Assembly (NCBI RefSeq): GCF_041248615.1
Contig: NZ_CP158425.1
Source: Escherichia coli
Lineage (GTDB): Bacteria; Pseudomonadota; Gammaproteobacteria; Enterobacterales; Enterobacteriaceae
Length of the DNA stretch: 64,000 bases
Strand: one strand, 5' to 3'
Shown: positions 11,637 through 52,676 of the stretch, piece after piece
Layout: the number at the start of each line of letters is the position of its first letter
Position numbering within the stretch: the stretch's first letter is position 1
Translations under genes and position numbers: made by a program
The notes under the pieces: model-generated
What the model was told of the DNA's origin: nothing
The model's database searches: none
What the model saw: the letters and a program-made list of their open reading frames with translations, nothing else

Positions 11637-11666
11637 AGTAAATATCTTCAAGCAAAAACAATTAAA

Positions 11667-36003: not shown

Positions 36004-36876
36004 TTACTTGGCTTTCAATGTTTTTTCTGGGAAGCCTTTTTTACCGTATTCACCGGTAAAGAGGTAATAATCTTTTCCGTTGATGGAGGCTGCAACACCC
36101 CCTGGAGTTGTTGTATTTGGGCTATCAGAACGGAAAATGATACCCGAAAAATCAGCGCTTGTTTCGTTTCCTTTAAATGGGATGAACACATAACGAATTA
36201 CAGCGTAATCACCAGCGGGAAGGTTTAGCTGAGGAATTTCGGTTCCTGTTGCGGGGCGAATCGCCTGAAAGCTGTACATTGAATCTGTAGGGAAAACATC
36301 AGCATCAGGCTTAGAGGGCAGATCACAGGTACTCCATTTATTGACGACTGCCATATCAATTTTACATGTGGCCAGAGCTGCTTTCTGTTTTTCAGGGTTG
36401 TATCCAAATGAGGCCTGAGTTGCTTTTGTATGCTCAAAAACATACTTAGCTCCTTCACGTACCAAACTTTCATCATTGTAAGGCAATTTTTTTGGATTGG
36501 GGACGAACACTAGGTATTGATTGACCTGGATGTATTCGGCGTCAGAAGAACTGTACAAAGAGCCGAGGCTCATGATCCCAAAACCTTTTAGACCGCCTGT
36601 TACGTAGCCCATCGAACTATTGATGAGATACTTAGAAAGAAAGTTGTCGGCATCCCCTCCAGGAGTAACCTCTTGCTCCTTAAAATTAACGTCGAAACCA
36701 GCAAACGAATAGGCATTCTTGGCGACAGAATCATTTGCTTTAGCATGCCAGTACTGGCCGTGACTGTACGCATTCAGAGCGGTGCCTGGCGTAGTGCCGG
36801 TGTCACCGGCACAACCCGATAGGGAAAAACCAATGACGACAGAAGAGACCAGAGATACTAAACGTAAAAGTTTCAT
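36004..36876 (-). CDS. Hypothetical lipoprotein
   Basis: 290 aa; lipobox LSGCAG after the signal peptide. Confidence 0.5.
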   Translation of the reverse strand: MKLLRLVSLVSSVVIGFSLSGCAGDTGTTPGTALNAYSHGQYWHAKANDSVAKNAYSFAGFDVNFKEQEVTPGGDADNFLSKYLINSSMGYVTGGLKGFGIMSLGSLYSSSDAEYIQVNQYLVFVPNPKKLPYNDESLVREGAKYVFEHTKATQASFGYNPEKQKAALATCKIDMAVVNKWSTCDLPSKPDADVFPTDSMYSFQAIRPATGTEIPQLNLPAGDYAVIRYVFIPFKGNETSADFSGIIFRSDSPNTTTPGGVAASINGKDYYLFTGEYGKKGFPEKTLKAK

Positions 36877-37055: not shown

Positions 37056-38840
37056 ATGGGTAAGCCAACAGAAGAGCAAAGACCTGTTATCGAGAATGCT
37101 AGCGCAAACAATATGGTGATAGCAGCGCCTGGATCAGGCAAATCATTCACCATGATAGAAGCGGTTATATCGATTCTCAAAAAGTATCCATATGCAAGAA
37201 TCGGGATGGTGACCTTTACTCGCGCTGCAACAAACGCACTTGCAGCAAAGTTACAAAAGCGATTGAGCAAGAAGGATCTTGACCGGGTGCTGGTGGATAC
37301 TTTTCACGGACTCGTTAAGAAGCAACTGGACATGATTCGCTGGCCGGGAAAGATGTTGATAGGGCCAGCACAGAGATCTGTCATTCACCGGGCTTTGAAA
37401 GAATCCGGTGTAACGATGAAGTTTGCTGAAGCTGAATTCGTTATTGATGCTATCGGCAGAGAAATGGATACGGATGTGATTTCAGTTCGGCATAACAGAC
37501 AACAGATCCATTTATTTAATACCTATCAGGCGTTATGCCAGAAAGACCATGTGGCGGACCTCAATGCTCTTTCAAAATTTGTTGTCGGTCAAATGCATTC
37601 GGGAAAAATGCGCACGTTAGATTTGACACATTTGATAGTAGACGAAGTTCAGGATACTGACTCTATACAATTCTCATGGATAGCATTGCATACAAGAGCT
37701 GGAGTCTATACGAGTATAGTTGGAGACGATGATCAGGCCATCTACTCCTTCAGATCCTCAGGAGGAGTCAAAATATTTCAACAGTTTGAAAAACACTTCA
37801 GACCTAACATATTTTACTTAAACACATGCTTTAGGTGTGAACCTGAAATTTTAGAGGTGGCCGGAGCACTGATAGGAAAGAATGTTTACCGTTATGCCAA
37901 AGAGTTACGCTCGGCAAAAAAGGGAGGAGGAAAGGTCACTTTTCGTTCATATGTAGATATGGAGGAACAGATACAGGGTATTTTAAGCCTTATAAATCAG
38001 GATCCACATGGATGGGCAATTCTAAGCCGCAATAATGCTCACTTGGATGAGCTAGAAAGTTTGATCGAACAGCCAGTAATTCGTTACGGAGGTAAATCAT
38101 TCTGGGATGAAAAAGAAACAAGCGATGTGTTAAGCCTTATGGCCTTTTTCCGACAATCAAATGATCCTCGCTTAATGAAGAGAGTATTGGCATTGTTTGG
38201 AGAACAGGAATCAGTTTTGGATGATGTGGCATTGAGTATGAGAGGAAGAAAAGTTACTTTTGGCGACCTTGCCATCCCGGAGGACAGTTCTCTCGAAACA
38301 AAAACATTACATTCAAACTTCGTGCGCTTTACCCAGGAAAGTACTGATAAAGTTGAGATAGCAAAACGTTTCGCCAACCTTACGAAATGGATGGAATCGT
38401 CGTCAATCAAGATGAGGAGTAATAAAGGTACAGCAACCTTAACAAAAATTGCTTTAGACACTTGTAAACAGTGGGCAGAAAAGACTGGTTGGATGAATAT
38501 GATCAATCGTGCTGCTGCAATGTCATTAGGCCCTAGGAAGAAGGACGAGGAATACAGCCCAGAGAAAGTAGTCCTATCAACCTTGCATGGTTCAAAGGGT
38601 CTTGAGTGGAATAAAGTAATAATAATGAGTTGTAATGCGGATCAGATACCAAGTAAAAGATCAGTTGGGGAGGAGGCAATAGAAGAAGAAAGACGTTTGC
38701 TTTATGTTGGATTTACGCGTGCAGAAAAGCAACTTTTTGTAATGTGGTATGGTGACCCTTCTTTCTTTTTAAGAGAATGCAGTGAAGAAAAGATAAAAGA
38801 AGCAGCTAATATTCGAATTTCTCCAGTTTATACAGAATAA
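37056..38840 (+). CDS. UvrD/Rep-family (SF1) DNA helicase
   Basis: 594 aa; Walker A (AAPGSGKSF), DExx (LIVDEVQDT), and C-terminal UvrD motifs (STLHGSKGLEW, VGFTRAEKQL). Confidence 0.75.
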   Translation: MGKPTEEQRPVIENASANNMVIAAPGSGKSFTMIEAVISILKKYPYARIGMVTFTRAATNALAAKLQKRLSKKDLDRVLVDTFHGLVKKQLDMIRWPGKMLIGPAQRSVIHRALKESGVTMKFAEAEFVIDAIGREMDTDVISVRHNRQQIHLFNTYQALCQKDHVADLNALSKFVVGQMHSGKMRTLDLTHLIVDEVQDTDSIQFSWIALHTRAGVYTSIVGDDDQAIYSFRSSGGVKIFQQFEKHFRPNIFYLNTCFRCEPEILEVAGALIGKNVYRYAKELRSAKKGGGKVTFRSYVDMEEQIQGILSLINQDPHGWAILSRNNAHLDELESLIEQPVIRYGGKSFWDEKETSDVLSLMAFFRQSNDPRLMKRVLALFGEQESVLDDVALSMRGRKVTFGDLAIPEDSSLETKTLHSNFVRFTQESTDKVEIAKRFANLTKWMESSSIKMRSNKGTATLTKIALDTCKQWAEKTGWMNMINRAAAMSLGPRKKDEEYSPEKVVLSTLHGSKGLEWNKVIIMSCNADQIPSKRSVGEEAIEEERRLLYVGFTRAEKQLFVMWYGDPSFFLRECSEEKIKEAANIRISPVYTE

Positions 38841-39234
38841 TTCGATATGGGCATTTACTTATGCTTAAAGCTATAGTATAAAAACAATGAGCTTAAATAT
38901 CAGCTCCCAAATTTGAGTAACTTTGCTTAAAGTTACTTTCGCGTTAAGCGTTGATTTAGCCGTGAAAAGCGGCCAGCTTAAACAAGCTGTAAGACACCAC
39001 CGGCAAAATGTCACCTTTGTCGCTGGTGCACTTCCCATGCCTGAAAAAGGCAATCTGAATTTACCAAACCGTAACTAATTTAGCTCCTCCTGGAGCTATT
39101 TTTGTTGCGTACTTCTAATGCCAGATAGTATAAATCAGGCGGTTCATAGCTTACGGGAGATGAATGACAGGCTTTGCCTTCGTGTTGAAACAAAAAATTG
39201 TTTCTTCCTTCTTACTATATATAGGTGACCCCAA

Positions 39235-40107
39235 ATGTCTAAAAATAAAGCTCGCAGTAAAGCCCTTCATCAAACCTTTAGTGAAATTATTCCAGAGATG
39301 GATAAGGCGCTAAACAAACAGCTCTTAGAAGTTCTGATGAAATATACAGAACGTGATAATGAACTGATTGTTATTTTGAATGAGGACGGCCCAAATATCA
39401 TTGAACTTAAGTCTCTTAAGCCTGTGTCTTTGTTGGCCGAAAAGCTTTCTGCTTATTCAAGCTATTATCATGTGGATGTTGTGGAGCTCGTGGTCAAGAA
39501 AATTGATTTCGAAGGAGCTTATAAGCTTCTTAAAGCTTCCCCAGATGTACCACTTTTTAAAAGCTTAACTGAACTGGATAAATATCTTGTTGAGGAGTTT
39601 GAAAAATACGGATTAAATTCATTTCTTGACGTGGATAATCTGGATTACTCACTTGAAAAAGCCAGTGAACTCAAAAATGAGCAGTTAATAAATTGGGTTT
39701 CGGACATCATTTGCAAACGTGAAAAATTAACTTTACGTAAGCGTTTTGATGTCGCAGTAAAGGCCCACTACGAAAATGTAGAAAAAATGTATGATACCAT
39801 TCGTCCGTTAATGAAAAAACTGGGTTTCCCAGAAGATCTCATGACGCACACCTTTAGTGAGTTAAGCGTTTTTGAAACTAAAGGATGGGACCATGCAATA
39901 AAATCGAAAATTGAGACTCTCGCTAAGCGTGAAACTCAATATTTAGATGATGCGGCTAAAGCAGAGAATCGACGTCTTGTAACAGAGAAGTTGGAGAACT
40001 CTTTAGCGATTGCACCAACTAAACCAACAAGAAATTGGTTACATATTGCCGGAATTGCCTGTTTGGTAGTCTGCACGTTCATGTATGTAACTAATAAATT
40101 TATTTAA
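39235..40107 (+). CDS. Hypothetical tail-anchored protein
   Basis: 290 aa, mostly charged/helical, with a single C-terminal TM (WLHIAGIACLVVCTFMYV). Confidence 0.4.
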   Translation: MSKNKARSKALHQTFSEIIPEMDKALNKQLLEVLMKYTERDNELIVILNEDGPNIIELKSLKPVSLLAEKLSAYSSYYHVDVVELVVKKIDFEGAYKLLKASPDVPLFKSLTELDKYLVEEFEKYGLNSFLDVDNLDYSLEKASELKNEQLINWVSDIICKREKLTLRKRFDVAVKAHYENVEKMYDTIRPLMKKLGFPEDLMTHTFSELSVFETKGWDHAIKSKIETLAKRETQYLDDAAKAENRRLVTEKLENSLAIAPTKPTRNWLHIAGIACLVVCTFMYVTNKFI

Positions 40108-40164
40108 TCCTGTTAAGGGGGAACCCTAACGGGGCTTCTCTTTGAACAAATCGAGGAGCGGAAA

Positions 40165-40542
40165 ATGTCATATCTTGAATATATCAATGAAGTAAAAGTG
40201 TCCGGGATAGTTATCAGTGCTGTGGAGAAAAAAATGACTGACCAGAGTATAGGTTTGTTAATAAAGCTCAAAAATAGGATGAAGACAGAAGTTGATGGTG
40301 AAATCACTGAGAGAGAATTTTCAGTTCAAATCAAGGTGTCGCCTGAAATGTATTCAACCTGTTTCACTGGTATAAATCAGGGTGATGAGTTGATGGTCTC
40401 CGGTTATATTGTTGTCGATACTATTATGATTGAAGGGAGAGAACATCCTCTTGACTACATGAGAGTGGTAGCAACAAGTAAGTTGGCTCACATACCTAAA
40501 CCTCTAAAAGGTTTTGGACAAAGTAGCTTTAATCAGATCTGA
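40165..40542 (+). CDS. Hypothetical small protein; possible OB-fold ssDNA-binding protein (weak)
   Basis: 125 aa; alternating beta-strand pattern reminiscent of SSB/PriB; no firm motif. Confidence 0.3.
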   Translation: MSYLEYINEVKVSGIVISAVEKKMTDQSIGLLIKLKNRMKTEVDGEITEREFSVQIKVSPEMYSTCFTGINQGDELMVSGYIVVDTIMIEGREHPLDYMRVVATSKLAHIPKPLKGFGQSSFNQI

Positions 40543-40562
40543 CATTAAACCCACCCTAAAGG

Positions 40563-40593
40563 GGAGAAATCCCTTCATGGGATTTCTCCTTTT
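40563..40593 (+). terminator. GC-clamped hairpin plus T-run 10 nt upstream of the next start codon
   Basis: GGAGAAATCCC ttcat GGGATTTCTCC then TTTT. Confidence 0.5.
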
Positions 40594-40602
40594 GGAGTCC
40601 CC

Positions 40603-41580
40603 ATGAAACAAAAATTTAGGGCTACTGCAATAAGTAGTAATCAACTTAGTTTTTTTTCTATACTCGATATAGATGAAGATGAAATAACGCAAATAGTTGA
40701 TTCACCCAAAGAGCATTTAAATGATGCTTACACGTCCGGATTAAACTTTAAATCAGAAGAAAGTAACATTTCTGAGATAAATTATGATTCTGAAAGGCGT
40801 GAAAATCACCTTTATGAAAAATCCAAATTACTTAAAAATCAGATTTTGCATACAATTAATTTTGCAGCAGAAACAGATTATCTATATACGGTTGAAGAAT
40901 ATAACCCAGATTTGGGTGGTCTGGTAATAGAATGGACCCCTGAGGATGTGTATGTTGTTTTTCTATCCGCTATGGAAGAGTCTTTGGAAATCATTAAAGA
41001 ACTAGTGTTGAGGAGAAAGTTATTCTTCAAAGATGACAATGGTAATATCACAGTGAATCCACTTTTAGAAGCTGAAACACGGTGGTATATGTCAAAATCA
41101 TTTGAATACACTTGTTTATCTCATGGACTTGATGCATGTGAATTTAGAGCGGAATTAAAATCATGGCTCTATTATCATTCGCATCGTTCGATTAGTGAAA
41201 ACACGAAATTAGCTGAATGCAGGAATGATGATGAAATCATTTTGCATGATTGCAATGACGATATGGGCTGGGACATCTTCTTTGATCAGGATTATTTAAT
41301 GTCAGAAAAAAAACTGGCTGTTAAATGGACTGACAGGGAAATTATGGATGTTTACATAAAAGCTTTTAAATCCACATTAGAGTTGTTTGACGAGCTTGTT
41401 TCATGTGATCTGTTAACTAAACGAAACGCTTTTGGCAAGTTAGAAATCAATCCAATATTCGAAAATCATTTTGAATGGATCATGTCTGAAGCTTTTGAAA
41501 TAGTGGGAAATCATCTTGGTTATAATGTGCCTCAAATCAGGAAACTGATGGCAACTATTTGCCAAATGAATCTCAAATAA
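40603..41580 (+). CDS. Hypothetical protein
   Basis: 325-aa ORF with SD-like GGAG upstream; no recognisable motif. Confidence 0.4.
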   Translation: MKQKFRATAISSNQLSFFSILDIDEDEITQIVDSPKEHLNDAYTSGLNFKSEESNISEINYDSERRENHLYEKSKLLKNQILHTINFAAETDYLYTVEEYNPDLGGLVIEWTPEDVYVVFLSAMEESLEIIKELVLRRKLFFKDDNGNITVNPLLEAETRWYMSKSFEYTCLSHGLDACEFRAELKSWLYYHSHRSISENTKLAECRNDDEIILHDCNDDMGWDIFFDQDYLMSEKKLAVKWTDREIMDVYIKAFKSTLELFDELVSCDLLTKRNAFGKLEINPIFENHFEWIMSEAFEIVGNHLGYNVPQIRKLMATICQMNLK

Positions 41581-41637
41581 AATGCCACTGGCAAACATCT
41601 GCCAGAGGGCGGTGTTTGCATTTTACCGGAGTTAAAA

Positions 41638-42696
41638 ATGTCTAATGCCGCTATGAAGTTAAATGAAACATCTTCTGATGCTTATGAAAAATTAGAAGCT
41701 CTTCTTTCCCCGGATGTTATAAAGTTAAAACATTATGTGGATAAAGGTGAGTATCTTTTAGTTCTAGCAAAGGACCTTTTTGGTATTCCAGAAATGGATC
41801 CAAAGATGGCTGTGCCTGTTTTCAAAACTAAAACCTCGTATCGAGCTCCGCTGAACAAAGACTACATACCAAATCCCCGAATACTTGAACAAGTGGTTAA
41901 ACTGCTTATCAGTCCGGATATAGATTTAAGTGTGTGTCTTAAAGGTGAGTCCGGTTCTGGCAAGACTGAAATGGTAATGTACATTAGCCACATGATGAAT
42001 TGGCCGCTGACAATTAAGCAGATCAACAGCAATATTCGAGTTGATGAGCTTGAAGGTGAGCGCAGTCTTAATGGTGGTAATACAGGTTTTGTACACAGCG
42101 ATTTGGTAACGGGATTTCGTAATGGTCACCTCATTCTTCTGGATGAAGTGGACAAAATCGATCCTGATACGGCAGCAAAACTTCACATGCCCATTGAACG
42201 TAAGCCCTGGTCACTCAGTGCTAATGGTGGTGAGGTTATAACTGCTAATGGCTACACGCGATTTATTGGTACTGCAAACACAAACATGAGTGGAGGCGCT
42301 CGCCGGTTCGTTTCTTCTCAACGTCAAGATGCAGCTTTTATAAAGCGGTTCTTGATAGTTGAAATGGAGAAGCCCGACAAAGTTGCTTTAACCAATGTGC
42401 TTACTAAACGATATAGCTCTTTGCCTTTTCAGGTCATTGAGAAGTTCGTAAGAGTAGCGATTGCAGTAAATGACTCTGGTACAGAAGACAGTGTGATGGA
42501 TATTCGTCAATTAGTAGCTTGGGTTGGCACGTCGATGACGTTAAAAACCTTTAGTCTTCTTGACACTTTCAAAATAGCTTTTGCTTCTGCTTTACCTTTA
42601 CATGTGGTCGATCTTGTTCTTCAAGCTATAGATCTTTCTCTTGGCGAAGACAAGGATAAATCGCTGGAGTATTTCACAGCAAAAAAGTCGAGTTAG
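41638..42696 (+). CDS. AAA+ ATPase of the MoxR/CobS-like class
   Basis: 352 aa; Walker A (GESGSGKT), Walker B (ILLDEVD), downstream arginine-rich segment; size typical of MoxR/CobS. Confidence 0.7.
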   Translation: MSNAAMKLNETSSDAYEKLEALLSPDVIKLKHYVDKGEYLLVLAKDLFGIPEMDPKMAVPVFKTKTSYRAPLNKDYIPNPRILEQVVKLLISPDIDLSVCLKGESGSGKTEMVMYISHMMNWPLTIKQINSNIRVDELEGERSLNGGNTGFVHSDLVTGFRNGHLILLDEVDKIDPDTAAKLHMPIERKPWSLSANGGEVITANGYTRFIGTANTNMSGGARRFVSSQRQDAAFIKRFLIVEMEKPDKVALTNVLTKRYSSLPFQVIEKFVRVAIAVNDSGTEDSVMDIRQLVAWVGTSMTLKTFSLLDTFKIAFASALPLHVVDLVLQAIDLSLGEDKDKSLEYFTAKKSS

Positions 42697-43031
42697 ATGG
42701 GATTTGTTATGAAACCTCTGATATTTGTATCTCAGAGTTATCCCATCTTGAATTTAGTGCGTTTTTAAGTACGGATGGTGCTGCTACCATTGCTATAGCA
42801 AAAAACGGAACTAATTTTACTGGACTTATGCAACTGAATAACGACTATTCTTTATTGTTTTATCATGATGGTAAAATAAATATGGAAGGTCTGATTAAAC
42901 AAATGGAATTAAAAGGTTATATGTATCAGGGAGCAATGGGCAATGATGATGTTGTTGCTGAGTTTCCCGGTATTCTTTTAATTTCACCAGAGAAGCTTTA
43001 ATATCAACCCTATCGGGAAATCTTTCCCGTT

Positions 43032-43054
43032 GGGGAGGGTTTCCCCTTTTTTTT
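43032..43054 (+). terminator. Hairpin plus T8 element upstream of the 43065 gene
   Basis: GGGGA ggg TTTCCCC then 8 T, preceded by the perfect palindrome CGGGAAA tc TTTCCCG (43014-43029). Confidence 0.45.
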
Positions 43055-43064
43055 GGAGAAACCC

Positions 43065-44192
43065 ATGACTTTAAATACTTCAATGCTTAACAAAGTATCT
43101 GCAAAACAAATCTCTGAGAATTTTGCAAAATCATATCCAGATTTACTGGAAGGTGCAGTTATAACAAAAATTGAAATAAGTGGCTGTCAAGGATCGCGTC
43201 GAACCGATAAAATCGATTTGTCTTATGATGGAGATGATATTACGGATCAAAAAAGCGTATCTAAAAGCGAAGTACGCTGGATTGACATAAAAGCCCTTAG
43301 CTTCAAAAGTACGATTACCAGCAGAATATCAACTCTTTGCTCACGCTTGTGCATCCGCTATAGCAATATGTGGATTTTACCAGTATCCAGTATGGAAGAG
43401 TTTCTGGAAGGGGCCCAAGAGATTGAACGAGAGTTTCAGGCAGGTATTCAAAACGTTGTAGACAATTATGAGATGCATATTGAGGCTGAAAAAAATAGAA
43501 GCCCAAGAATGTCTTCTTTGATTGATCAGTTGAAATTAACTAAAGATGATTTCATAAAATCCTTTAGATTTAATATTGCTCACTTTATTCCTTTTACGCC
43601 TATTAGCGTTGAAGGTGATGAAACCCAGGACTACTATCAGGAACAATTGATAACAGATCTGGCAGAAGAAGCAATGAAGGTTTATGAAAAAATTAGCAAA
43701 AATAACAATTTGCGCTCAAGTACTATTGACCGACTGAAGCAAATGCAAAATAAGATCATTAGCTTCATGTTTATACATAAAGAGGCGGCAGTACTTGCAG
43801 AAGCTATAAAACACATAATGAATAATTTACCTAAAGGTGCCATTTCTGAACCTCGCGACGTTGCGGTGTTACAGCAGTGGTTTTATTTCATGAGTGATGC
43901 TTCAATGTTAAAGCGTATTATTTCAGGAGAGCAAAAGGTTACTGACTGGTTGGAATCTATTACCAGATCATTTAATCAAAGCTCACAAACAGAACCGAAC
44001 GCGCTACAGAACACAGGTATTGAAGCTATTTTAGATTCAACAAATGTGTTCCAGGTTGAACCTGTCGTAGAGAACGATATAAATAACAGCACGTTTTCAA
44101 ACACTGATCCTGTAGCTGAACCTGAGAAATCAGTTTCGCAACAGGAAGACAATGTTGAAAATTGTTTTGATATCGAGCTCAAAGGCTGGTAA
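43065..44192 (+). CDS. Hypothetical protein (ORF-track start 43053 is TTG; ATG at 43065 preferred)
   Basis: About 375-aa ORF between the AAA+ and vWA genes; RBS GGAGAAA. Confidence 0.4.
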   Translation: MTLNTSMLNKVSAKQISENFAKSYPDLLEGAVITKIEISGCQGSRRTDKIDLSYDGDDITDQKSVSKSEVRWIDIKALSFKSTITSRISTLCSRLCIRYSNMWILPVSSMEEFLEGAQEIEREFQAGIQNVVDNYEMHIEAEKNRSPRMSSLIDQLKLTKDDFIKSFRFNIAHFIPFTPISVEGDETQDYYQEQLITDLAEEAMKVYEKISKNNNLRSSTIDRLKQMQNKIISFMFIHKEAAVLAEAIKHIMNNLPKGAISEPRDVAVLQQWFYFMSDASMLKRIISGEQKVTDWLESITRSFNQSSQTEPNALQNTGIEAILDSTNVFQVEPVVENDINNSTFSNTDPVAEPEKSVSQQEDNVENCFDIELKGW

Positions 44193-44219
44193 CTGTTTGC
44201 TTTATTAAAAACCCCAGAT

Positions 44220-44254
44220 GGGTACTTCACCATCTGGGTGAGTACCCCTTTTTT
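44220..44254 (+). terminator. Hairpin plus T-run with an overlapping alternative stem
   Basis: GGGTACT/AGTACCC stem followed by T6; interdigitated with CCAGATGG/CCATCTGG (44214-44221, 44230-44237). Confidence 0.5.
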
Positions 44255-44269
44255 ATAAAGAGGTATTCT

Positions 44270-46288
44270 ATGAAATTAGATCTTAAATCATCACCGCGCC
44301 ATATTAAGCGTTTACAGAATATAGCAAAAGTCATTAGCGGCTTAGGCGATGTAAGAGTTGTAATAGACGACAATACCAAAGGACCGTATTTTGATCCTGT
44401 AAATAAAGTTTGTGTTTTACCAAACGGCGATTATAGCGATGATGACTTTGTCAGTCTGATTGAAGGTTTTACCTGTCATGAAGCTGGTCATGGTCGCTAT
44501 ACCGACAGCGAGGTTTACAGTGACGCCTTTAATAGTGTTCTCAAGTCATCTGAAGGGTTTACACGCTTCGATGACGGAATGAATGCAGAGTTTGAGAGCC
44601 TCGCTGAGAAACGTAAAGCTTATAGCAGGGCAAAACGTCTTACCGGGCTTATAAATCTGTTCGATGATGTACAGATGGAAGAGAAGGTTGGTAACGATTA
44701 TCCGGATGCAAAGCGGCGGCTTGCAGCCACTTACGCACTGATGGTTAAAGCCGGAAGGATGACTCCTGATATATCTTCTCGTCCGGAAAATCCTGTCCTA
44801 TTTATTGAGTGGTATCTGCTTAACTCATTGCGAGTAAAAGTCCTTCAGCAGGCAGGTCACAAAGAAACACTCGATCCGTTTTTTGACTATGCCCAAAAGA
44901 TACTTTCTCCAGTAATTTCTGATGTTGAGGAAATTTTTCATGATGCTCTTGGTTGTGAAAATACTCAGGGCTGTGAATCCCTTGCTCGTAAGACCCTGGC
45001 TCTTTTAGAGAGACTGCGGGATGAGGCAAGGGAACAACAGCAGCAGACAGAGCAGGAGGAGCAGGAGGCATATGATGAATCCGAGACCGAGACCGATACC
45101 GATACCGATACCGAATCAGAAGATAAATCGCTTGAGTCGACTGATAGTCGTGAGGATGATTCTGAGGACGATAGTGAAGGTCAGGCAGATACTTCCGATA
45201 ACTCTGATCTTGCTCAAGAGGGATGTTCTGAGCCTTCAGAACTTGCTGAAGATAACGAGGGAAATAATGAACCCACCGGTGGCAATCCCACAGGTGATAA
45301 CATTATTGAAGACGATACTGATGCGATTAACCCTTCCGAGAGTGAATCAGATGAAGCCAGTTCGACTAACGTTGAAGATGAAAGTAACTTTTCATCGGCT
45401 CAATGGGAGATACTGGCAGATTTGTTGGATGCCTTTCTTGGCAGTGATGAGGATAGCGAAGATTATCACGATGCTTTGGCTAAAGAGATTGAAGGTATTG
45501 CATCAAAAGTATCCGATGACGTGAAAGCCGAATTCGGTGCTTCTGAATGGGATATCCCTGATCTCCTTATCGATTTGAATGTTTACAATGAGGCTTTGTC
45601 TCTGAGTCATTCAATCGGTAGCGACTTGTCTGTTTTACAGCAGGTTAAAATGCGTGGCCGAAACAAAACTCATGAGCGTGGAATTACCTTCGATGGAAAT
45701 CGATTAATTCTGTCACCAATGGGAGTTCGTGATGTCTTCAGAGCTCAAAGCGAATCTAAAAATAGAGGGCATGTTGGCCTCGTATTAGTTCGTGATATTT
45801 CAGCGTCAATGGCTAATGATGAAAGATATATTCATGCCATTAAGTCAGATCTTGCTTTATCGATGGCCGCTGAAAGTTTGTCAAAAATGCATGTCTCCAA
45901 TATAGTCTTTCCCTTCAAGGAAAGTGAATTTGAGATTATCAAAACGTTTGATCAAAGCGTTGAGGAATCTCTATCGAAATTCACTCTTGGATGTAAGGGT
46001 TATTATACCCCTACGGGATCGGCTTTAATGGCAGCTGTTGATCTGTTACTTGACAGCCAATTCGATAGGAAAATAATTTTTCTTATAACTGATGGTTATC
46101 CGAATAAATCGGAATTTACTATCGGCGAAGTTATGGAAAAGGCTAAATGTAATGGAATAGAAATCGTTGGTGTTGGTATTAAGACTGATGAAATAATTGG
46201 TTTTGAAACGGACACTTTCGTAACAGTTGATGATACTTCTTTATTGTCTATTGAAGTCAGTAAGCTAGTTCATCAAATACTTTCTTAA
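44270..46288 (+). CDS. vWA-domain protein with long acidic low-complexity linker (CobT-like partner of the AAA+ ATPase)
   Basis: 672 aa; C-terminal MIDAS-like DxSxS (VRDISASM) and later TDG motif (LITDGYPN); central Asp/Glu/Ser/Thr-rich region of about 130 aa. Confidence 0.65.
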   Translation: MKLDLKSSPRHIKRLQNIAKVISGLGDVRVVIDDNTKGPYFDPVNKVCVLPNGDYSDDDFVSLIEGFTCHEAGHGRYTDSEVYSDAFNSVLKSSEGFTRFDDGMNAEFESLAEKRKAYSRAKRLTGLINLFDDVQMEEKVGNDYPDAKRRLAATYALMVKAGRMTPDISSRPENPVLFIEWYLLNSLRVKVLQQAGHKETLDPFFDYAQKILSPVISDVEEIFHDALGCENTQGCESLARKTLALLERLRDEAREQQQQTEQEEQEAYDESETETDTDTDTESEDKSLESTDSREDDSEDDSEGQADTSDNSDLAQEGCSEPSELAEDNEGNNEPTGGNPTGDNIIEDDTDAINPSESESDEASSTNVEDESNFSSAQWEILADLLDAFLGSDEDSEDYHDALAKEIEGIASKVSDDVKAEFGASEWDIPDLLIDLNVYNEALSLSHSIGSDLSVLQQVKMRGRNKTHERGITFDGNRLILSPMGVRDVFRAQSESKNRGHVGLVLVRDISASMANDERYIHAIKSDLALSMAAESLSKMHVSNIVFPFKESEFEIIKTFDQSVEESLSKFTLGCKGYYTPTGSALMAAVDLLLDSQFDRKIIFLITDGYPNKSEFTIGEVMEKAKCNGIEIVGVGIKTDEIIGFETDTFVTVDDTSLLSIEVSKLVHQILS

Positions 46289-46303
46289 TAAACTCTACCC
46301 AAT

Positions 46304-46332
46304 CGGGGCAAAAGGCCCCGGTGGGTCTTTTT
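46304..46332 (+). terminator. Hairpin plus T-run after the vWA gene
   Basis: CGGGGC aaaag GCCCCG with outer ACCCA/TGGGT arms, then CTTTTT. Confidence 0.5.
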
Positions 46333-46359
46333 GCTCCATGAAGGAATAAGGAGCAAAAT

Positions 46360-46581
46360 ATGACTCAGATAAAAACTTACCGTGTAGAACATGAAAAAGT
46401 CGGTGCGATGCATAAAGTCCGTATTTTCGGACGTGTTGGTGAAGTTATAAGCAATGATAGCCCTCAGGAAAGAATCTTCCGCGAAGTCACTATAGCGGAG
46501 GGTAATAGCCAGCAGGCTGCGTTACTTGTAGATAACTACATACAGCGTCTTGAGAATAATGGCTTCACGACTGAAGCATAA
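46360..46581 (+). CDS. Small hypothetical protein
   Basis: 73 aa with good SD (AAGGAG) 7 nt upstream; bracketed by hairpins. Confidence 0.35.
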   Translation: MTQIKTYRVEHEKVGAMHKVRIFGRVGEVISNDSPQERIFREVTIAEGNSQQAALLVDNYIQRLENNGFTTEA

Positions 46582-46586
46582 ATGTT

Positions 46587-46610
46587 GAGGGCCCCCGGGC
46601 CCTCTTTCTT
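46587..46610 (+). terminator. Hairpin plus T-rich tail after the small gene
   Basis: GAGGGCCC cc GGGCCCTC then TTTCTT. Confidence 0.5.
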
Positions 46611-46694
46611 AAATTCTGCGTTGTGGGTTTCTCCCTGTCTTCTGCACCGCAGAAGGCATTGAGAAACTCACAATGCCAGATAAGAGAGATCATC

Positions 46695-47927
46695 ATGACT
46701 TATGCATCCCCGGCTCTTCGTCGTAATCCACAGGAAGTATCTGAACACTTTATTAAACTCGTTCATGCTCGAATTGCTGAAGTGTCTGGCTGGAAGTATA
46801 TATTCGAAAGAATACCTGCTTTCAAAGACGCTTGTGCAAAAGCCCCGAGCCAGGTTCCTTGCCCGTTTACTGGCGCAGGGAAATCGAAGTTTCGTTTCCG
46901 ACAAAAAGACCTTTATACCGGATGTGCGATCCATAATGACTTTCCGGTAAATGAGTTTTGCGACGGAATTGATGTTCTGGCGAAATATTATGAATTAAGT
47001 AAAACGCAGACTTGCAAAAAGATTCTCTCAGATTTTTTCGGGATGGATCTGCATGCTCCGTTAACTGACGCCGACATTGAAAATGAACGACGCTATAAAT
47101 CAGCAGTTCGTGCCACAGAAACTCTTGACCGAGAGGAAGTGGCAAAGCGAATGCGAAAACTTGATGTGATGTATCACTATACCGGTGAAATCAAGCCTAA
47201 TACTCCTGTTGCTTTGTACCTCCGTAATCGTGGGATCTCCCGCTTACTGAGTCACTTACCAAAGGATTTAGGCTTTAATAACCGGATCTACTATTGGGAT
47301 AAAGATAAGCAGAAATCGATTATCTATCCGGGAATGATTGCGATCTATCGTGACACCCGAGGTCGGCCTCTGACTATTCATAGAACATACGTAGACAAAA
47401 ATGGTGATAAGGCACCTGTAGAAAATCCAAAGCTGATGATGAAGCCTCCTGCCGATATGACAGGTGGCTCAATTCAGTTGTTTGACCCTCACTATGATTC
47501 AGGTAGTTCGACCTGGACACTGGGAGTGGCTGAAGGGATCGAGAACGCGCTTTCTGTTGTAGAAGCGACTTCAACACCATGCTGGGCAGCCAGCTCCGCA
47601 TGGTGCCTTGAAAACGTTACTGTTCCTGATTTTTTACTGCCTCCGCCGGATGTAAAATCTATAAACTTTTATATCTGGGCGGATAAGGATATTGCTAACT
47701 CACAAGGCACTCGTGCCGGTATTGAAGCTGCTCAGCGACTTCAAAGCCGCATGGTTGAGTTTTTGGCTAAACGATATCCCGCATCAAAGCTGACAATTGA
47801 AGTCTTCGAACCAGCACAAGATATTCCTGATGGGAAAAAGGGTATCGACTGGAACGATGTTCTCCAGTTAACAGGGCAGGATGGATTCCCGATTCACTGG
47901 GCTCCTGAATGTCTTAATCAGCTGTAA
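46695..47927 (+). CDS. DNA primase-like protein (zinc-binding N-terminus plus Toprim-like C-terminal domain); ORF track extends to 46623
   Basis: CxxGxGKxKFRF-type zinc-binding motif (CPFTGAGKSKFRFRQKD...CAIH), recalled as similar to P4-alpha/TraC-type primases; acidic Toprim-like segment (YIWADKD...GTRAGIEAAQRL); RBS AGAGAG before ATG 46695. Confidence 0.55.
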   Translation: MTYASPALRRNPQEVSEHFIKLVHARIAEVSGWKYIFERIPAFKDACAKAPSQVPCPFTGAGKSKFRFRQKDLYTGCAIHNDFPVNEFCDGIDVLAKYYELSKTQTCKKILSDFFGMDLHAPLTDADIENERRYKSAVRATETLDREEVAKRMRKLDVMYHYTGEIKPNTPVALYLRNRGISRLLSHLPKDLGFNNRIYYWDKDKQKSIIYPGMIAIYRDTRGRPLTIHRTYVDKNGDKAPVENPKLMMKPPADMTGGSIQLFDPHYDSGSSTWTLGVAEGIENALSVVEATSTPCWAASSAWCLENVTVPDFLLPPPDVKSINFYIWADKDIANSQGTRAGIEAAQRLQSRMVEFLAKRYPASKLTIEVFEPAQDIPDGKKGIDWNDVLQLTGQDGFPIHWAPECLNQL

Positions 47928-47931
47928 CAAC

Positions 47932-47965
47932 GATAACTCCCCCGCTTTTTGCGGGGGGGGTTATC
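47932..47965 (+). terminator. Long GC hairpin after the primase-like gene
   Basis: GATAACTCCCCCGC ttttt GCGGGGGGGGTTATC. Confidence 0.4.
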
Positions 47966-48797: not shown

Positions 48798-49676
48798 ATG
48801 AAGTTAGCTACGGACCTGGTAAAAGCTATTTTGATTAGAAATGGCGTTGAACCAGTAAATATAAGCGAATCATCTAAGTTATCTTTGAAACAACCACTGA
48901 CAGAACTTAAATTCAGTTTATATTTGCGAACTGAGCATTTATCTCACTTCCTACCCGGTTATGTTTATTCTATAAAAGAATGTCCACTGTCATATGACAT
49001 CGGGATCGAAATTCAGAAAATCTTCGAAAGTTTACATTTGTTAAACGAAGAATTTGAATCCCTCGGTTTTGTTTCTGTATGGATAGAAATGCATCAAAGC
49101 ATTTTTGAACAAAGTCGGTTTAAGAAAAGTAACTTTACTTTTCGGGAGGAAGAGGTCGAGCTTGCTAAAGGGCTTGTTTGTTCTCACAATTCACAAATAA
49201 GTAATGCGGCTTATTTCTGGCTTCAGCACTTTGAGGAGTTTATGATTTATGTTCGTAATAAGCTTATCGACCTCTTTCGAGAGGCCTATGACCTGATCCT
49301 TGGAATGCAGCAAGTATTTTTCATTCGGGAAAAGGAAGAGCTGTTGAAAACTATAAGTTATGGCGATGAGCTGTATGAGGTGAAATTCATGGCGGCTGAG
49401 CTTTACTCTATCGAACAGAACTTAAAGTGTTCTGAATCGATAAGTACAAAATCTCAAGCTTCGGCATATATTAACCGCATCCGTGAGTTTGTGCGTTCGG
49501 GGTGGAGGCAGGGCTATATAGTCTGCCATCATAAGCGAAGTAATCAAATTTCATCATTGTCATTACCGATGTACTTGAAAGATACGTCAGGCCGAAGTGC
49601 TCGAAAGCGAGTAAAACGTCTTATATCTTCTACAGTTTGTGGTAGAAATAAAGATTTAGGTCTTACAGATTTTTAA
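48798..49676 (+). CDS. Hypothetical ~300-aa protein, member 1 of the tandem paralogue family
   Basis: 292 aa; N-terminus (LVKAILIRNGVEPVNISES) shares a pattern with the four following genes. Confidence 0.45.
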   Translation: MKLATDLVKAILIRNGVEPVNISESSKLSLKQPLTELKFSLYLRTEHLSHFLPGYVYSIKECPLSYDIGIEIQKIFESLHLLNEEFESLGFVSVWIEMHQSIFEQSRFKKSNFTFREEEVELAKGLVCSHNSQISNAAYFWLQHFEEFMIYVRNKLIDLFREAYDLILGMQQVFFIREKEELLKTISYGDELYEVKFMAAELYSIEQNLKCSESISTKSQASAYINRIREFVRSGWRQGYIVCHHKRSNQISSLSLPMYLKDTSGRSARKRVKRLISSTVCGRNKDLGLTDF

Positions 49677-49694
49677 TTAAATTATACCCATGTG

Positions 49695-49730
49695 GGGATC
49701 ACACCCCATATGGGAGTGATCCCTTTTTTT
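49695..49730 (+). terminator. Hairpin plus T7 between paralogues 1 and 2
   Basis: GGGATCAC/GTGATCCC stem then 7 T; overlapping near-palindrome CCCATGTGGGG / CCCCATATGGG. Confidence 0.55.
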
Positions 49731-49746
49731 ATTGAGAGAGGATCAC

Positions 49747-50682
49747 ATGAAAATTATCGAAAAAATCATTAATGCCTTTTTGGTTGTTCAACATAAAAAA
49801 ATACAGGTTAAAAACATTACATTTTTAGACAATGGGCAGGGCATGTTCTCTGGTATGTCTTTTGATGCTGATGTTTCACTGGAGTTTATGTATGAATCAG
49901 CAAAAGCATATAGTTCTTGTTTCTTTGATATTCCCTTTCCAGGTTTTGAAGATGCAAATCTGGAGGAAATTACGAAATTTCAATTAGATGCTTTGAAGCA
50001 AAGAAAGAATCATTCTTTCTTTGTTAACCATTTGAGGTTTCCTATAGTTTTAAGGGAAGGGTGCAAAATCGAAAGAGGAGAAGTCTATTCAATTTCGAAT
50101 TGCACTTATAATAAAGAAAGATTGCAGTATCTTTTTTCTCAGGATATTTACGGTAAGTTGTATAATTCCTTAGAGAAAGAATTAAGCTCGTTTTTCTCAT
50201 TTATCAATGTTGAGGTGCACGAGTTGTTAAAAGATGCTGTATGCTTTGCATTAAAAATCCTGAATAAGATATCTTTGGATACACCTGAAAGACTTATTAA
50301 AGCTTTTAATTATCGTGACTGGTATTGTAGTTACGATGTTGAGCTTTTTAGGAAAGGCTTACCTGGTCATATTCTGGAAGAGCTCATTGCTCCAGATATC
50401 TTACTTTCAGACCTTAACGGTTGTAGAAAAATACTTAGAAATGCAAAACGATTTCTAAATGGACATACACAAACCAATTGTGTTTATATTAAATATGAAT
50501 GGTGGTTGGGGCCTGTTGATACCTCACACTCAGCTAAGTTGATGTCTGACAAAGAAATTAATAACCGAAGTGACTTGAAGAATTTTTCAAAGGTCTTTTT
50601 CAAAGAGTGTTTAAGTTCTGGTAAGTCGGAATATGAAAACCATCTTAGTGAAAAAGAACATGCGCTTCGCTATAATTATTAA
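49747..50682 (+). CDS. Hypothetical ~300-aa protein, paralogue family member 2 (ORF-track start 49732 is TTG; ATG 49747 preferred)
   Basis: N-terminus KIIEKIINAFLVV...ITFLDNG follows the family pattern. Confidence 0.45.
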   Translation: MKIIEKIINAFLVVQHKKIQVKNITFLDNGQGMFSGMSFDADVSLEFMYESAKAYSSCFFDIPFPGFEDANLEEITKFQLDALKQRKNHSFFVNHLRFPIVLREGCKIERGEVYSISNCTYNKERLQYLFSQDIYGKLYNSLEKELSSFFSFINVEVHELLKDAVCFALKILNKISLDTPERLIKAFNYRDWYCSYDVELFRKGLPGHILEELIAPDILLSDLNGCRKILRNAKRFLNGHTQTNCVYIKYEWWLGPVDTSHSAKLMSDKEINNRSDLKNFSKVFFKECLSSGKSEYENHLSEKEHALRYNY

Positions 50683-50750
50683 TTAAAATTATTTTCTCCC
50701 ATAGGGATTTCTCCCTATGGGAGAAATCCCTCTATTAAGAGGGTATTGAA

Positions 50751-51671
50751 ATGAATGCTATACAAAAGTTAGTTGAATCTATTCTTGTTAAAATGGGTTT
50801 TGTTGGCGCTGTAGTGGAAAATATATATTTGGATTCAAAACCATTTCGGCATATTCGATTTGTGGCTGATATTCCAGTAATATCTTTTCTACCTCATTTG
50901 GTGAAATATCTTAAGGGTGCAGACCATCTTTACAGTGGTAACGATGATTTGCATCCTCTTTTCATTTATTTTTCCGAAGCGGCTACATTAAAAGCAGGTC
51001 CTGTAAATCTCGCGAACTTTCGTTTTGAAGTTTCTATAGCTTCAACTCATTTACGACTGGTCTCAGAGCAGCCTGATTTGCTTTTCAAAGGATTTAACCG
51101 GGATAATCTAGAATACGTTTATTACCGCTCAGATTTGGCCTCTAAGGATCTTATACTAGGCCTTGTTGAACACGGTTCTCCTTTCATAAAACATCTACAT
51201 GGACTTATACAAAAGCGAATTTTAAACGAGTTCTCTCTGATTTTTTCTGTTCTTGAAAAGATTTTAGAAAGCGCGAAGCCACAAATTCTTGCTTGCTTCC
51301 ATAGTGTTGATTATGAAATGAACGTAAAAATAATAGCCGAAGCTATACCTGAAACTGTATCTAATCAGATAGTCACATCTGATTATATAGTTAATTCTAT
51401 ATCAGATGCGGACAAGTTTATAAATCATGTTCGTCGCTATTTAGCAGGCAGGGTAATGAAGAGGCGGATATACGCTGAATTAGATGTTTGTGAAGAAACA
51501 TCAAGTATTTCACTAGTGAACTTAGGATGCTTTACGTCTCCTCTGCTCGTTACGGAATATCAAATGTTTAAGCCACACTCTTCAGGGTTATATCGAAAAG
51601 CTATAAACAACTCCTTAAAACAGTTCAAACCAGAAATGCATGTACCTTCTGAAGAACTCTTTTATAATTAA
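50751..51671 (+). CDS. Hypothetical ~300-aa protein, paralogue family member 3
   Basis: 306 aa; N-terminus IQKLVESILVKMGFVGAVVENIYLD. Confidence 0.45.
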   Translation: MNAIQKLVESILVKMGFVGAVVENIYLDSKPFRHIRFVADIPVISFLPHLVKYLKGADHLYSGNDDLHPLFIYFSEAATLKAGPVNLANFRFEVSIASTHLRLVSEQPDLLFKGFNRDNLEYVYYRSDLASKDLILGLVEHGSPFIKHLHGLIQKRILNEFSLIFSVLEKILESAKPQILACFHSVDYEMNVKIIAEAIPETVSNQIVTSDYIVNSISDADKFINHVRRYLAGRVMKRRIYAELDVCEETSSISLVNLGCFTSPLLVTEYQMFKPHSSGLYRKAINNSLKQFKPEMHVPSEELFYN

Positions 51672-51737
51672 TCTAACCCATCCGGGAACCTGCTTCCCGG
51701 TGGGAAGCACTTCCTTTTTAGTCATGAGGTAGTGTAA

Positions 51738-52676
51738 ATGTTTAAAGAATCTGACCACGTGGAATTTGTTAGTGCCTTTCTTTATCAAAATTTAGGCCTT
51801 AATGTTTCCGCTGACGATATAACCGTTCAATTATCTGATACTTCGTTCGACAAAGTAACCTTTGATTACGATGTAGATATCGATAATTTAAATTGTATGT
51901 TGGATCTCTACATATCTGAGCTAATAAAGCACAACGCATCTTACTCCGATTCTATTCTTTTGAAACAAAAAATAATTTATTTTCTTGGAGTATTTAAGAA
52001 TTTCGGATTTTTTACGTTTGATATTCGCGGATATAGTAATACTTTAAGCCCAGTTAAAGTTATTGATATTGTTTCAATGATTATTAATGACTGTGAAGAG
52101 TTATCTAAAGCTAATTCTTCTACTGATGCTATAAGAAATCTTTATCTCGATAAAATGAAGGTGGATGGGAAAGTGTTAGTTGCGAAATTTGCACTTAAAC
52201 AGTTTTTTCATTCCGACTTTGGTGACTTTATCTCATTTGTCGAGAAAAGAATTACAGATTGTCTTAATGAAACTTTAAGGATTATCAAAGCTGTTGAACA
52301 TGGCTTTGTACGTGTAGGGCAGCATAAGATTAATCGCCGTATTAATGATGACTTAAAGTTATGCATTGATTTCAATACTGATGATTATCCGGCAAATATG
52401 CCAGATATATATATTAAGTTTAACGATACATTTGATGGGAACGGGGCGTTATATTGTGACAATGATGCCCTCATATCCCTCTATACCGATGTTGCTTCAA
52501 TTATCAATGTGCCGGTGATGATGGAAGTAAGATTGATCAATAAAAGAGGGCGTGTTGTCTGTGATTCTTCGCATTCAACTTACGTATCTCTCGAAAGTAA
52601 TGACCGATACAGAGTAACTGATCGCACATTACTAATAACTGAAGCTTTTGACGATTTTCGTAACGCGTCTCAATGA
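51738..52676 (+). CDS. Hypothetical ~300-aa protein, paralogue family member 4
   Basis: Clearly paralogous to member 5 (VDGKVLVAKFALKQFFHSDFGDFISFVEKRIT versus VDGQVMIARFALQQFWDTHFIGLITFVSESIT); same upstream context GAGGTAGTGTA(A/T)ATG. Confidence 0.5.
   Translation: MFKESDHVEFVSAFLYQNLGLNVSADDITVQLSDTSFDKVTFDYDVDIDNLNCMLDLYISELIKHNASYSDSILLKQKIIYFLGVFKNFGFFTFDIRGYSNTLSPVKVIDIVSMIINDCEELSKANSSTDAIRNLYLDKMKVDGKVLVAKFALKQFFHSDFGDFISFVEKRITDCLNETLRIIKAVEHGFVRVGQHKINRRINDDLKLCIDFNTDDYPANMPDIYIKFNDTFDGNGALYCDNDALISLYTDVASIINVPVMMEVRLINKRGRVVCDSSHSTYVSLESNDRYRVTDRTLLITEAFDDFRNASQ

Follow-up and report, generated by a model that had tools for sequence, protein, structure and literature searches.

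The 64,000-nucleotide stretch of Escherichia coli DNA analysed here (contig NZ_CP158425.1; hereafter, the window) is the Tra2 end of a conjugative IncHI2 plasmid backbone. The present study concerns a gene cluster at positions 37056–47927, centred on three genes that code for a predicted MoxR-class AAA+ ATPase, a DUF3150 protein and a von Willebrand factor A (vWA) protein with a zincin-like N-terminal domain. Many IncHI2 plasmids carry this 10.9-kb stretch with 100% identity; it matched 1407 plasmid records, 1120 of them with at least 99% identity, the majority being typed as conjugative. Plasmid p14408_M1, the coordinates of which are equal to those of the window, is typed as IncHI2A, MOBH and MPF_F, in agreement with the conjugative plasmid assumed in the original prediction, which had been made from the sequence alone.

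The cluster contains ten genes, all on the + strand (Table 1). Nine of them had been listed in the original prediction, at the right positions within about 11 kb of a single strand, and one, coding for a 57-aa protein, had been overlooked. The family assignments made there (UvrD-family helicase, MoxR AAA+ ATPase, vWA protein and primase-like protein) were upheld by searches of Pfam, NCBIfam and PHROG.

Table 1. Genes, protein regions and hairpins of the IncHI2 cluster (positions in the window)
Feature	Positions	Strand	Match
trhI, superfamily 1 (SF1) UvrD/Rep-type helicase, 594 aa	37056–38840	+	
Terminator-like hairpin in the 394-bp gap 3′ of trhI	39081–39098	+	
p290, predicted tail-anchored protein, 290 aa	39235–40107	+	
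p125, probable SSB-like OB-fold protein, 125 aa	40165–40542	+	
p325, pre-AAA family protein, 325 aa	40603–41580	+	
Predicted MoxR-class AAA+ ATPase (AAA_5)	41638–42696	+	Pfam
p57, small protein, 57 aa	42828–43001	+	
DUF3150 protein, 375 aa, folded core and disordered acidic tail with terminal Trp	43065–44192	+	
vWA protein, whole gene	44270–46288	+	
vWA protein, N-domain (aa 1–248), gluzincin-like	44270–45013	+	
vWA protein, polyacidic disordered linker (about aa 249–400)	45014–45469	+	
vWA protein, C-terminal vWA domain with intact MIDAS	45602–46288	+	Pfam VWA 8e-7
p73, small protein, 73 aa	46360–46581	+	
DUF7146 + Toprim_3 primase-like protein, 410 aa from the annotated start	46695–47927	+	
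Strong terminator-like hairpin at the cluster end, 9 pairs, 8 of them G-C	47937–47959	+	

Conservation of the trio and its neighbourhood

Co-occurrence of the cluster genes was counted in loci scored with purpose-built hidden Markov models, the thresholds of which were set ad hoc, and with open reading frames (ORFs) called mechanically. An unbiased set was obtained by scanning one genome per species with a pattern for the vWA protein, and the count takes the non-redundant zincin-vWA genes with at least 4 kb of upstream sequence (n = 16), a partner being a gene within 6 kb on the same strand. Loci L002–L013 had been found through DUF3150 or the ATPase and are biased to co-occurrence, so the unbiased figures are given separately. 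The vWA gene was accompanied by an AAA+ gene in 15/16 unbiased loci, by a DUF3150 gene in 14/16, by a Toprim gene in 8/16 and by a TrhI-type helicase gene in 5/16. When all the non-redundant loci, including those from other queries, were considered (n = 26), the figures were 25, 24, 16 and 10, respectively. On the basis of these counts, the AAA+, DUF3150 and zincin-vWA genes constitute an obligate unit, with the primase-like gene as a frequent companion and the helicase as a lineage-specific one, neither of them obligatory. So, it can be said that the single functional module of the original prediction was drawn too broadly, also because trhI is an apparent separate unit. The AAA+ and vWA genes contained in it are a conserved pair (AAA+ within 6 kb in 25 of the 26 loci), and the conservation of gene neighbourhood, suggested there as a check, holds for the core trio.

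The trio occurs in Gammaproteobacteria, Parasutterella, Pseudodesulfovibrio, Lentisphaerae (several copies on one chromosome) and Oscillospiraceae. A short Actinomycetota contig with a DUF3150 and a zincin-vWA gene ends before any ATPase gene and was left uncounted. The plain AAA+/vWA pairs of Verrucomicrobia, with neither the N-domain nor DUF3150, form a clear outgroup. The order helicase ... pre-AAA, AAA, DUF3150, vWA, small gene, Toprim recurs, at 20–40% protein identity, in an IncHI1B/FIB Klebsiella plasmid, an Aeromonas MOBH plasmid, a Shewanella plasmid and traN-carrying contigs, and a Pseudomonas MOBH plasmid carries the trio near traN. In Shewanella-type loci, a 180-aa family is found between AAA and DUF3150, and in the IncC locus ssb-bet-exo lies between the ATPase and DUF3150 genes, with no Toprim or TrhI-type gene. 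Across lineages, the neighbours of the trio code for single-stranded DNA-binding protein (SSB), RecT/Bet, lambda-Exo, PD-(D/E)XK or Cas4-like exonucleases, DprA-like proteins, HU, SNF2/DEAD helicases, other primase families, SbcC-like proteins and the anaerobic ribonucleotide reductase NrdD.

Two further observations were made in these loci. The chromosome of Lentisphaerae bacterium WC36 carries at least five copies of the vWA gene (L031, L034, L035, L037 and L046), four of them with ATPase and DUF3150 genes and preceded by a Cas4/RecE-like exonuclease gene; several copies have their DUF3150 gene in fragments, with a group II intron reverse transcriptase/maturase (e.g. L031:7156-9021) between them. 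In six loci (L004:21777-22001, L005, L021, L026, L027 and L032), from IncC, Shewanella, Motilimonas and Pseudoalteromonas elements, a gene for a YfaE-like 2Fe-2S ferredoxin (a ribonucleotide-reductase maintenance protein) lies a few kb downstream of the trio, with no equivalent in the IncHI2 window.

The three core proteins

The ATPase matched Pfam AAA_5 (7e-27) and PHROG_249, and Pfam did not detect a CbbQ_C domain in it. Its nearest solved relatives are Midasin, NorQ, CobS and CbbQ. Conserved residues include Walker A (G103–K109), Walker B (E170/D172), N214, R237 and R290, so that the Walker, sensor and arginine residues of a MoxR-type AAA_5 protein are intact, as is the metal-ion-dependent adhesion site (MIDAS) of its vWA neighbour. 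It shares 27% identity (E 7e-25) with the ATPase Vcrx089 of IncC, which has the same DUF3150 and zincin-vWA neighbours. As judged from its sequence, it is a MoxR-class AAA+ ATPase and a distant homologue of Vcrx089.

The vWA protein, matched by PHROG_1576/17276, has the three-part layout of CobT: N-domain, acidic linker and MIDAS vWA domain. The acidic linker noticed in the original prediction is present (56 D/E versus 5 K/R in 153 residues, about residues 248–400), and its length is about 150 aa instead of the approximately 130 proposed; a linker of variable length was found in all the vWA homologues and in CobT. The MIDAS residues D509-x-S511-x-S513, T580 and D608 occupy invariant columns. 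Concerning the N-domain, the residues H70, E71 and H74 and the motif NxxEDxRxE (N129, D133, E137) are invariant in ten homologues of about 20% identity. In 29 sequences, H70, E71, H74 and D133 remain invariant and NxxEDxRxE strongly conserved. Among 33 distinct N-domains, 31 have the motif HExxH and the other two HExxxH. These features conform to a zincin, and the N-domain is predicted to be an intact HExxH gluzincin (M48/M56-like) fold and a putative peptidase.

Profile comparison placed CobT (9uka_G, 1e-20) first among the solved relatives of the linker plus vWA part, ahead of NorD and BatB, and the N-domain profile aligns weakly, end to end, with the N-domain of CobT (21vu_H, E 0.005). Genuine CobT has GDSMA at the position of HExxH. 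The zincin-vWA family looks like a catalytically intact relative of CobT, and CobT may have arisen from an active metallopeptidase-vWA protein or be the degenerate sister of one. The resemblance to CobS-CobT, and to the logic of the Mg-chelatase BchI-BchD, extends to the MoxR/AAA_5-class ATPase and to the layout of CobT (helical N-domain, acidic linker, MIDAS vWA). The trio differs in its intact HExxH and in having DUF3150 as third partner, whereas in CobT the motif is degenerate and the partner is CobN.

The DUF3150 protein matched Pfam DUF3150 (4e-22). Its predicted structure shows a confident folded core and a disordered C-terminal third, and it has no informative solved relative. An exhaustive profile search returned DUF3150 proteins in 707 clusters at 50% identity; word-indexed protein searches with DUF3150 and the zincin N-domain had retrieved close relatives or fragments only. 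No DUF3150 was found by tblastn in 50,697 phage records, and none was detectable in the locus of Vibrio phage ICP2. Of 84 family representatives, 72 (86%) have an acidic tail with F, W or Y as its last residue; the tails contain 21% D/E versus 3% K/R, and the ends read ...DIELKGW in the window protein and ...DDDGDYFF in the IncC protein. An acidic tail with a terminal aromatic residue resembles the C-terminal tip of SSB, which docks onto replication and repair proteins. An equally good possibility is that the tail binds the MIDAS site or the ATPase ring. It seems reasonable to consider the DUF3150 protein as a probable adaptor or substrate-presenting subunit.

Companion genes and gene layout

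TrhI matched the Rep, UvrD and PcrA models of NCBIfam (1e-46 to 1e-53, all far under the equivalog cut-offs) and the DNA helicase family PHROG_1967 (1e-69). Its Walker A (G26-S-G-K29), DExQD (196–200) and GDDDQ (223–227) motifs are kept in 12 homologues, and its RefSeq product name is 'IncHI-type conjugal transfer helicase TrhI'.

The primase-like protein matched DUF7146 (2e-18) and Toprim_3 (3e-11) of Pfam and the DNA primase family PHROG_510 (1.4e-27); no solved homologue was found by sequence search. Conservation of the Toprim acidic residues (E280/E283, D330 and D385/D388) was seen across 18 sequences. The zinc ribbon of the original prediction is putative: the protein has DUF7146 instead of zf-CHC2, and the Cys and His positions with at least 85% conservation are limited to C56 and H80. 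Its likeness to Sog (IncI), TraC (IncP) and the P4-alpha-type primases is that of a Toprim primase-like protein encoded by a conjugative element; the differences are that it is a stand-alone protein, with DUF7146 in place of the canonical zinc finger and without a helicase or transport domain, both priming and transfer to the recipient being putative.

Concerning the smaller proteins, the OB fold that the original prediction had thought possible for p125 was supported by comparison with an SSB-like neighbour family (hhalign probability 96.3%, E 1.8e-9, 111 columns) that occupies the same position in distant loci and has one member matching TIGR00621 ssb (1e-12). p125 is taken as an SSB-like OB-fold (oligonucleotide/oligosaccharide-binding) protein; its C-terminal end, ...GFGQSSFNQI, lacks the acidic SSB tip. 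The orthologues of p325 aligned with a pre-AAA family (hhalign probability 97.4%, E 1.3e-11) that lies immediately upstream of the ATPase gene in many loci and is present in 13/26 non-redundant ones. BLAST matches land on two regions of p325, which is possibly duplicated internally. The C-terminus of p290, WLHIAGIACLVVCTFMYVTNKFI, is hydrophobic, and on this account the prediction of a tail-anchored protein was retained. p290 had no family match (NCBIfam, PADLOC and PHROG among the searches), and its homologues are confined to the IncHI-type loci L002, L015 and L016. Homologues of p73 were found in the same three loci and that of p57 in L015 only, so that p290, p57 and p73 are restricted to IncHI-type elements.

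The linkage of these genes is punctuated by hairpins, as originally described: 21 terminator-like hairpins were observed versus 9.0 ± 3.2 in shuffled sequences, and they occupy most intergenic gaps (those after trhI, p325, p57, DUF3150, vWA, p73 and Toprim). A strong one (43015–43045) lies directly 3′ of p57, and two (46302–46322 and 46587–46604) flank p73. A scan of 35.9–48.4 kb with Rfam gave no known RNA element, its single match being spurious and below threshold, and the hairpins are plain terminator-like stem-loops. The description of the linkage as tight needs correction at one point, since a 394-bp gap with a hairpin separates trhI from the other genes, which suggests that trhI is a separate transcription unit. 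In some IncHI2 plasmids, the cluster is interrupted by insertion sequences; the 10.9-kb stretch contains IS1203 and ISKpn26 insertions, and the ATPase gene has been hit by IS1B. The existence of these disrupted copies means that the cluster is dispensable for plasmid maintenance.

On the same strand, 5′ of the cluster, there are a replication gene, the Tra2 mating-pore genes trhL/E/K/B/V/C, partition genes, htdA and rsp, and also trhF, a trbC-like gene, trhU and trhN. The cluster starts just past the last pore gene and an opposite-strand gene (36004–36876, −) for a predicted lipoprotein of 290 aa with lipobox LSGC, which directly follows trhN. This lipoprotein is conserved at 42–77% identity in other IncHI-type loci. 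In position and size it is as the product of the IncC surface-exclusion gene sfx (vcrx085, 286 aa), without sequence similarity.

Comparison with related systems

Parts of this arrangement are on record. Miyakoshi et al. (2009) described ORF100–103 of pCAR1, including a MoxR-like AAA+ and a VWA protein, as conserved in R478, Rts1, SXT and R391; in that list, R478 is the IncHI2 prototype. The gene set is present in MOBH/MPF_F elements of the IncHI, IncC/IncA, IncT, IncP-7 and SXT/R391 types, beside traN/trhN. In IncC, Roy et al. (2020; PMC7498323) defined the hde operon and reported that the AAA_5/CbbQ_C ATPase Vcrx089, together with Vcrx090, protects against type I restriction. Deletion of vcrx089-090 lowered transfer 25-fold into Vibrio cholerae proficient in type I restriction-modification, not into an hsdR mutant, and it was complemented in the recipient, not in the donor (PMC7498323). 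The same work showed that ssb-bet-exo of IncC repair CRISPR-induced breaks and detected vcrx087, vcrx089 and bet in cDNA made from a primer at the 3′ end of vcrx094 (PMC7498323); from the gene order of the IncC record, we infer that vcrx094 is the DUF3150 gene and vcrx095 the vWA gene. Dimitriu et al. (2024; PMC11602122) found that deletion of vcrx089-090 raised restriction by EcoBI and EcoKI 424- and 906-fold, and AntiDefenseFinder has an entry vcrx089_090, a two-gene anti-restriction-modification system.

The IncC/SXT-R391 locus (the hde operon, vcrx087–vcrx093, plus downstream genes) shares with the IncHI2 cluster a homologous AAA_5 ATPase, DUF3150 and zincin-vWA genes on the same strand (within the ATPase transcript in IncC), an SSB-type gene, the position after traN and an opposite-strand lipoprotein gene, and the MOBH/MPF_F backbone. 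The differences are that IncHI2 has neither a Vcrx090 counterpart nor bet/exo, that the TrhI helicase, the tail-anchored protein, the pre-AAA protein and the Toprim gene are present in IncHI2 only, and that the DUF3150 and vWA genes of IncC are outside the defined hde set. Family searches of 37–48 kb detected no RecT/Bet or exonuclease homologue, p125 being the sole SSB-like protein, so the ssb-bet-exo set is not represented.

Pairs of MoxR and metallopeptidase-vWA proteins were reported in jumbo phages (group 2.2) by Iyer et al. (2021), and no such statement was found in the literature for conjugative elements. In Vibrio phage ICP2, gp41/gp42 are annotated as CobT/CobS, with HECYH at residue 64. 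These phage pairs share with the plasmid proteins the HExxH N-domain, a G/E-rich linker, the vWA domain and the AAA+ partner; in ICP2 the gene order is reversed (vWA, then AAA), DUF3150 was not detected and the pair lies in a replication module, whereas virion assembly has been proposed in the literature for the phage pairs. The NorQ-NorD, CbbQ-CbbO, RavA-ViaA and BatA/B systems also have an AAA_5 ATPase beside a MIDAS vWA protein and are sequence relatives in the PDB, but they lack the zincin N-domain and DUF3150 and adjoin metabolic client genes. So, the statement that the arrangement was not a described system holds in part: the kind of system is already recognised (conserved MOBH backbone genes, hde/Vcrx089 anti-restriction), with Miyakoshi et al. 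(2009), AntiDefenseFinder and Iyer et al. (2021) each covering a portion of it, and the IncHI2 arrangement differs in its partners.

Interpretation

With middling confidence, and by analogy with IncC, we interpret the cluster as the IncHI2 version of a DNA-processing and host-defence-evasion set of MOBH/MPF_F elements, with a function in entry and establishment. The core machine would comprise the MoxR-class ATPase, its CobT-like zincin-vWA partner and DUF3150, and would be active in the recipient shortly after the DNA has entered. By remodelling at the expense of ATP, probably together with proteolysis, it would neutralise those host proteins that attack the incoming DNA or block it, type I restriction complexes being the principal targets; meanwhile, p125 would coat the incoming strand, the Toprim protein would prime it and TrhI would unwind it. 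The domain identities, the integrity of the motifs and the conservation of the trio and of its DNA-metabolism neighbourhood are established by the comparisons above. The link of the IncHI2 cluster to anti-restriction comes from the experiments on the IncC homologue, and the joining of the three proteins in one complex, the protease activity of the zincin domain and the identity of the target are part of the proposed mechanism. Among the roles offered in the original prediction, establishment and anti-defence are the best supported, through the IncC homologue, and defence has only generic GajB-like matches in PADLOC.

Several facts weigh against this interpretation. The window ATPase and Vcrx089 share just 27% identity. 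A counterpart of Vcrx090, the defining partner in the IncC anti-restriction pair, is absent from the cluster proteins by BLAST and by hhalign with a 10-sequence Vcrx090 alignment (probability ≤1.7%; comparison with p290, p125, p325, the pre-AAA family, the 180-aa family, DUF3150 and the zincin domain), and thus the cluster cannot be filed under the vcrx089_090 system. The IncC papers credit vcrx089-090 with the effect, the DUF3150 and vWA genes being outside the tested set, and the IncC transposon sequencing screen left these two genes unflagged; this screen compared Cas+ with Cas− recipients and was not designed for anti-restriction. Deletion of s068 or s070 of SXT changed transfer 10-fold at most (Wozniak et al. 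2009), and no functional work on the cluster in IncHI plasmids was found in the literature. The link to replication and recombination genes is universal and would suit a replication-accessory role just as well. The insertion sequences, which might also be listed here, speak of dispensability for maintenance and are neutral on a role in entry.

That last link leads to the main rival explanation, which we hold to be possible but doubtful, namely that the trio is an accessory chaperone of replication and recombination that matures, loads or recycles the primase, helicase, SSB or ribonucleotide reductase of the element, the IncC anti-restriction being either indirect (through faster duplex conversion or methylation) or due to Vcrx090. 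Every lineage examined has the trio within a replication/recombination block; the ICP2 pair is directly upstream of primase, helicase and DNA polymerase genes; distant phyla have helicase, primase and NrdD/NrdG neighbours, and the ferredoxin gene follows the trio in six loci. In addition, the nearest solved relatives, NorQ/NorD, CobS/CobT and CbbQ, are maturation or activation factors of metalloenzymes, and the DUF3150 tail resembles the SSB tip, which recruits replication and repair proteins. This explanation accounts less well for the IncC deletion phenotype, which disappears in an hsdR recipient and is therefore restriction-dependent; moreover, the IncC and Pseudomonas loci carry the trio without a Toprim gene nearby, and the disrupted copies persist, so that the cluster is unneeded for vegetative replication. 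The IncC results bear also on a donor-side role in transfer, with TrhI as the unwinding motor for the relaxase, the AAA+/protease remodelling the relaxosome or stripping covalent relaxase, and the primase exported like Sog/TraC. The MOBH relaxase lacks a helicase domain, the cluster comes directly after trhF-W-U-N on the same strand, RefSeq names a conjugal transfer helicase, several distant MOBH elements have a TrhI-type helicase after traN, and the combination of zincin and AAA+ resembles DNA-protein crosslink proteases. Nevertheless, the vcrx089-090 deletion was rescued in the recipient, not in the donor, with normal transfer to a non-restricting host, the SXT deletions in the block cost 10-fold or less, and IncC/SXT-type loci have no TrhI-type helicase, all of which makes this role unlikely.

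A plasmid-borne defence system against phages or competing plasmids, like the MoxR-vWA conflict systems of Kaur et al. (2020), is very unlikely, even though MoxR-vWA cores occur in nucleoside triphosphate-dependent conflict systems (PMC7159879) and the UvrD helicase has GajB-like matches in PADLOC (3e-42). The latter amount to generic UvrD homology, no GajA is present, DUF3150, the vWA protein and the small proteins are without a PADLOC match, and the matches of the ATPase (2e-4) and of the Toprim protein (a single one, E 0.0038) are marginal. No effector-type domain (nuclease toxin, TIR or pore former) is encoded, the same pair exists in the lytic phage ICP2, and the experiments with the IncC homologue point to counter-defence. 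Gabija and the other PADLOC defence systems were rejected as their required components are not all present. The chance of a genuine aerobic cobaltochelatase CobS/CobT of vitamin B12 synthesis, named in the original prediction as the finding that would speak against it, is close to nil. Weak matches to the CobS equivalog and to a putative cobaltochelatase model (1.3e-8 each), the kinship of the linker and vWA part with CobT and the CobT/CobS annotation of the phage homologues point in that direction, but the scores are far below the cut-offs (34.4 bits versus 558.55 for the CobS equivalog TIGR01650; about 34 bits versus cut-offs of 558 and 779 overall) and neither CobN nor any cobalamin gene is present in the annotated 1–59.9 kb (some 60 kb) of the identical plasmid. 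The N-domain has HExxH where CobT has GDSMA, the third conserved partner is DUF3150 instead of CobN, and the hosts are plasmids, integrative and conjugative elements and phages. By scores, gene context and motif, the cobaltochelatase identity is refuted, and the view that the cluster is not housekeeping stands as far as cobalamin is concerned.

A stronger form of the counter-defence interpretation, offered as a speculation more probably wrong than right, is that the trio is a widespread and mechanistically new machine, present in plasmids, integrative and conjugative elements and phages, in which an ATP-driven, MIDAS-targeted metalloprotease, catalytically active and akin to CobS-CobT, would remove or degrade host nucleases or DNA-bound proteins on the incoming DNA, the DUF3150 tail plugging the machine into the host SSB network or the ATPase ring. 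If true, restriction alleviation would here be encoded by a plasmid. IncHI2 plasmids rank among the major carriers of mcr-1 and multidrug resistance. In a cluster that is at least 99% identical in 1120 plasmids, the named helicase is the sole gene with an assigned role. If the trio gives IncHI2 a restriction evasion like that of IncC, it would be a host-range determinant common to IncHI, IncC/A, IncT, IncP-7, SXT/R391 and some phages, and a common target for blocking their spread. The protease motif, the kinship with CobT and the SSB-like tail turn 'conserved hypothetical' genes into testable point mutants, and they may also explain the real role of the widely annotated phage 'CobS/CobT' genes.

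Other features of the window

Between trhC and parA, at 12504–15594, a 249-bp unit is repeated in tandem about 12.6 times (73% matches), making up a 3.1-kb array. The surrounding region (11637–15973) lacks annotated coding sequences and ORFs of at least 150 aa, and its G+C content is raised (0.47–0.49). This array is possibly a partition or incompatibility repeat region.

Downstream of the cluster, at 48798–53804 (+), five consecutive genes of about 300 aa have the appearance of a paralogous array (p312/p318, 27% identity, E 1.5e-36; p306/p311, E 2e-4). Its only homologue in the other loci is an incomplete match of p292 at the end of the IncHI2-like locus L015. The genes at 48.2–56.3 kb gave three marginal matches in PHROG (E 0.0025–0.0049), to families of unknown function, two of them within the array. 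The long + strand block is closed by a gene for a Tus-like 'DNA replication terminus site-binding protein' (56406–57368), which is found in the same relative position in the IncHI1B-type plasmid pENVA.

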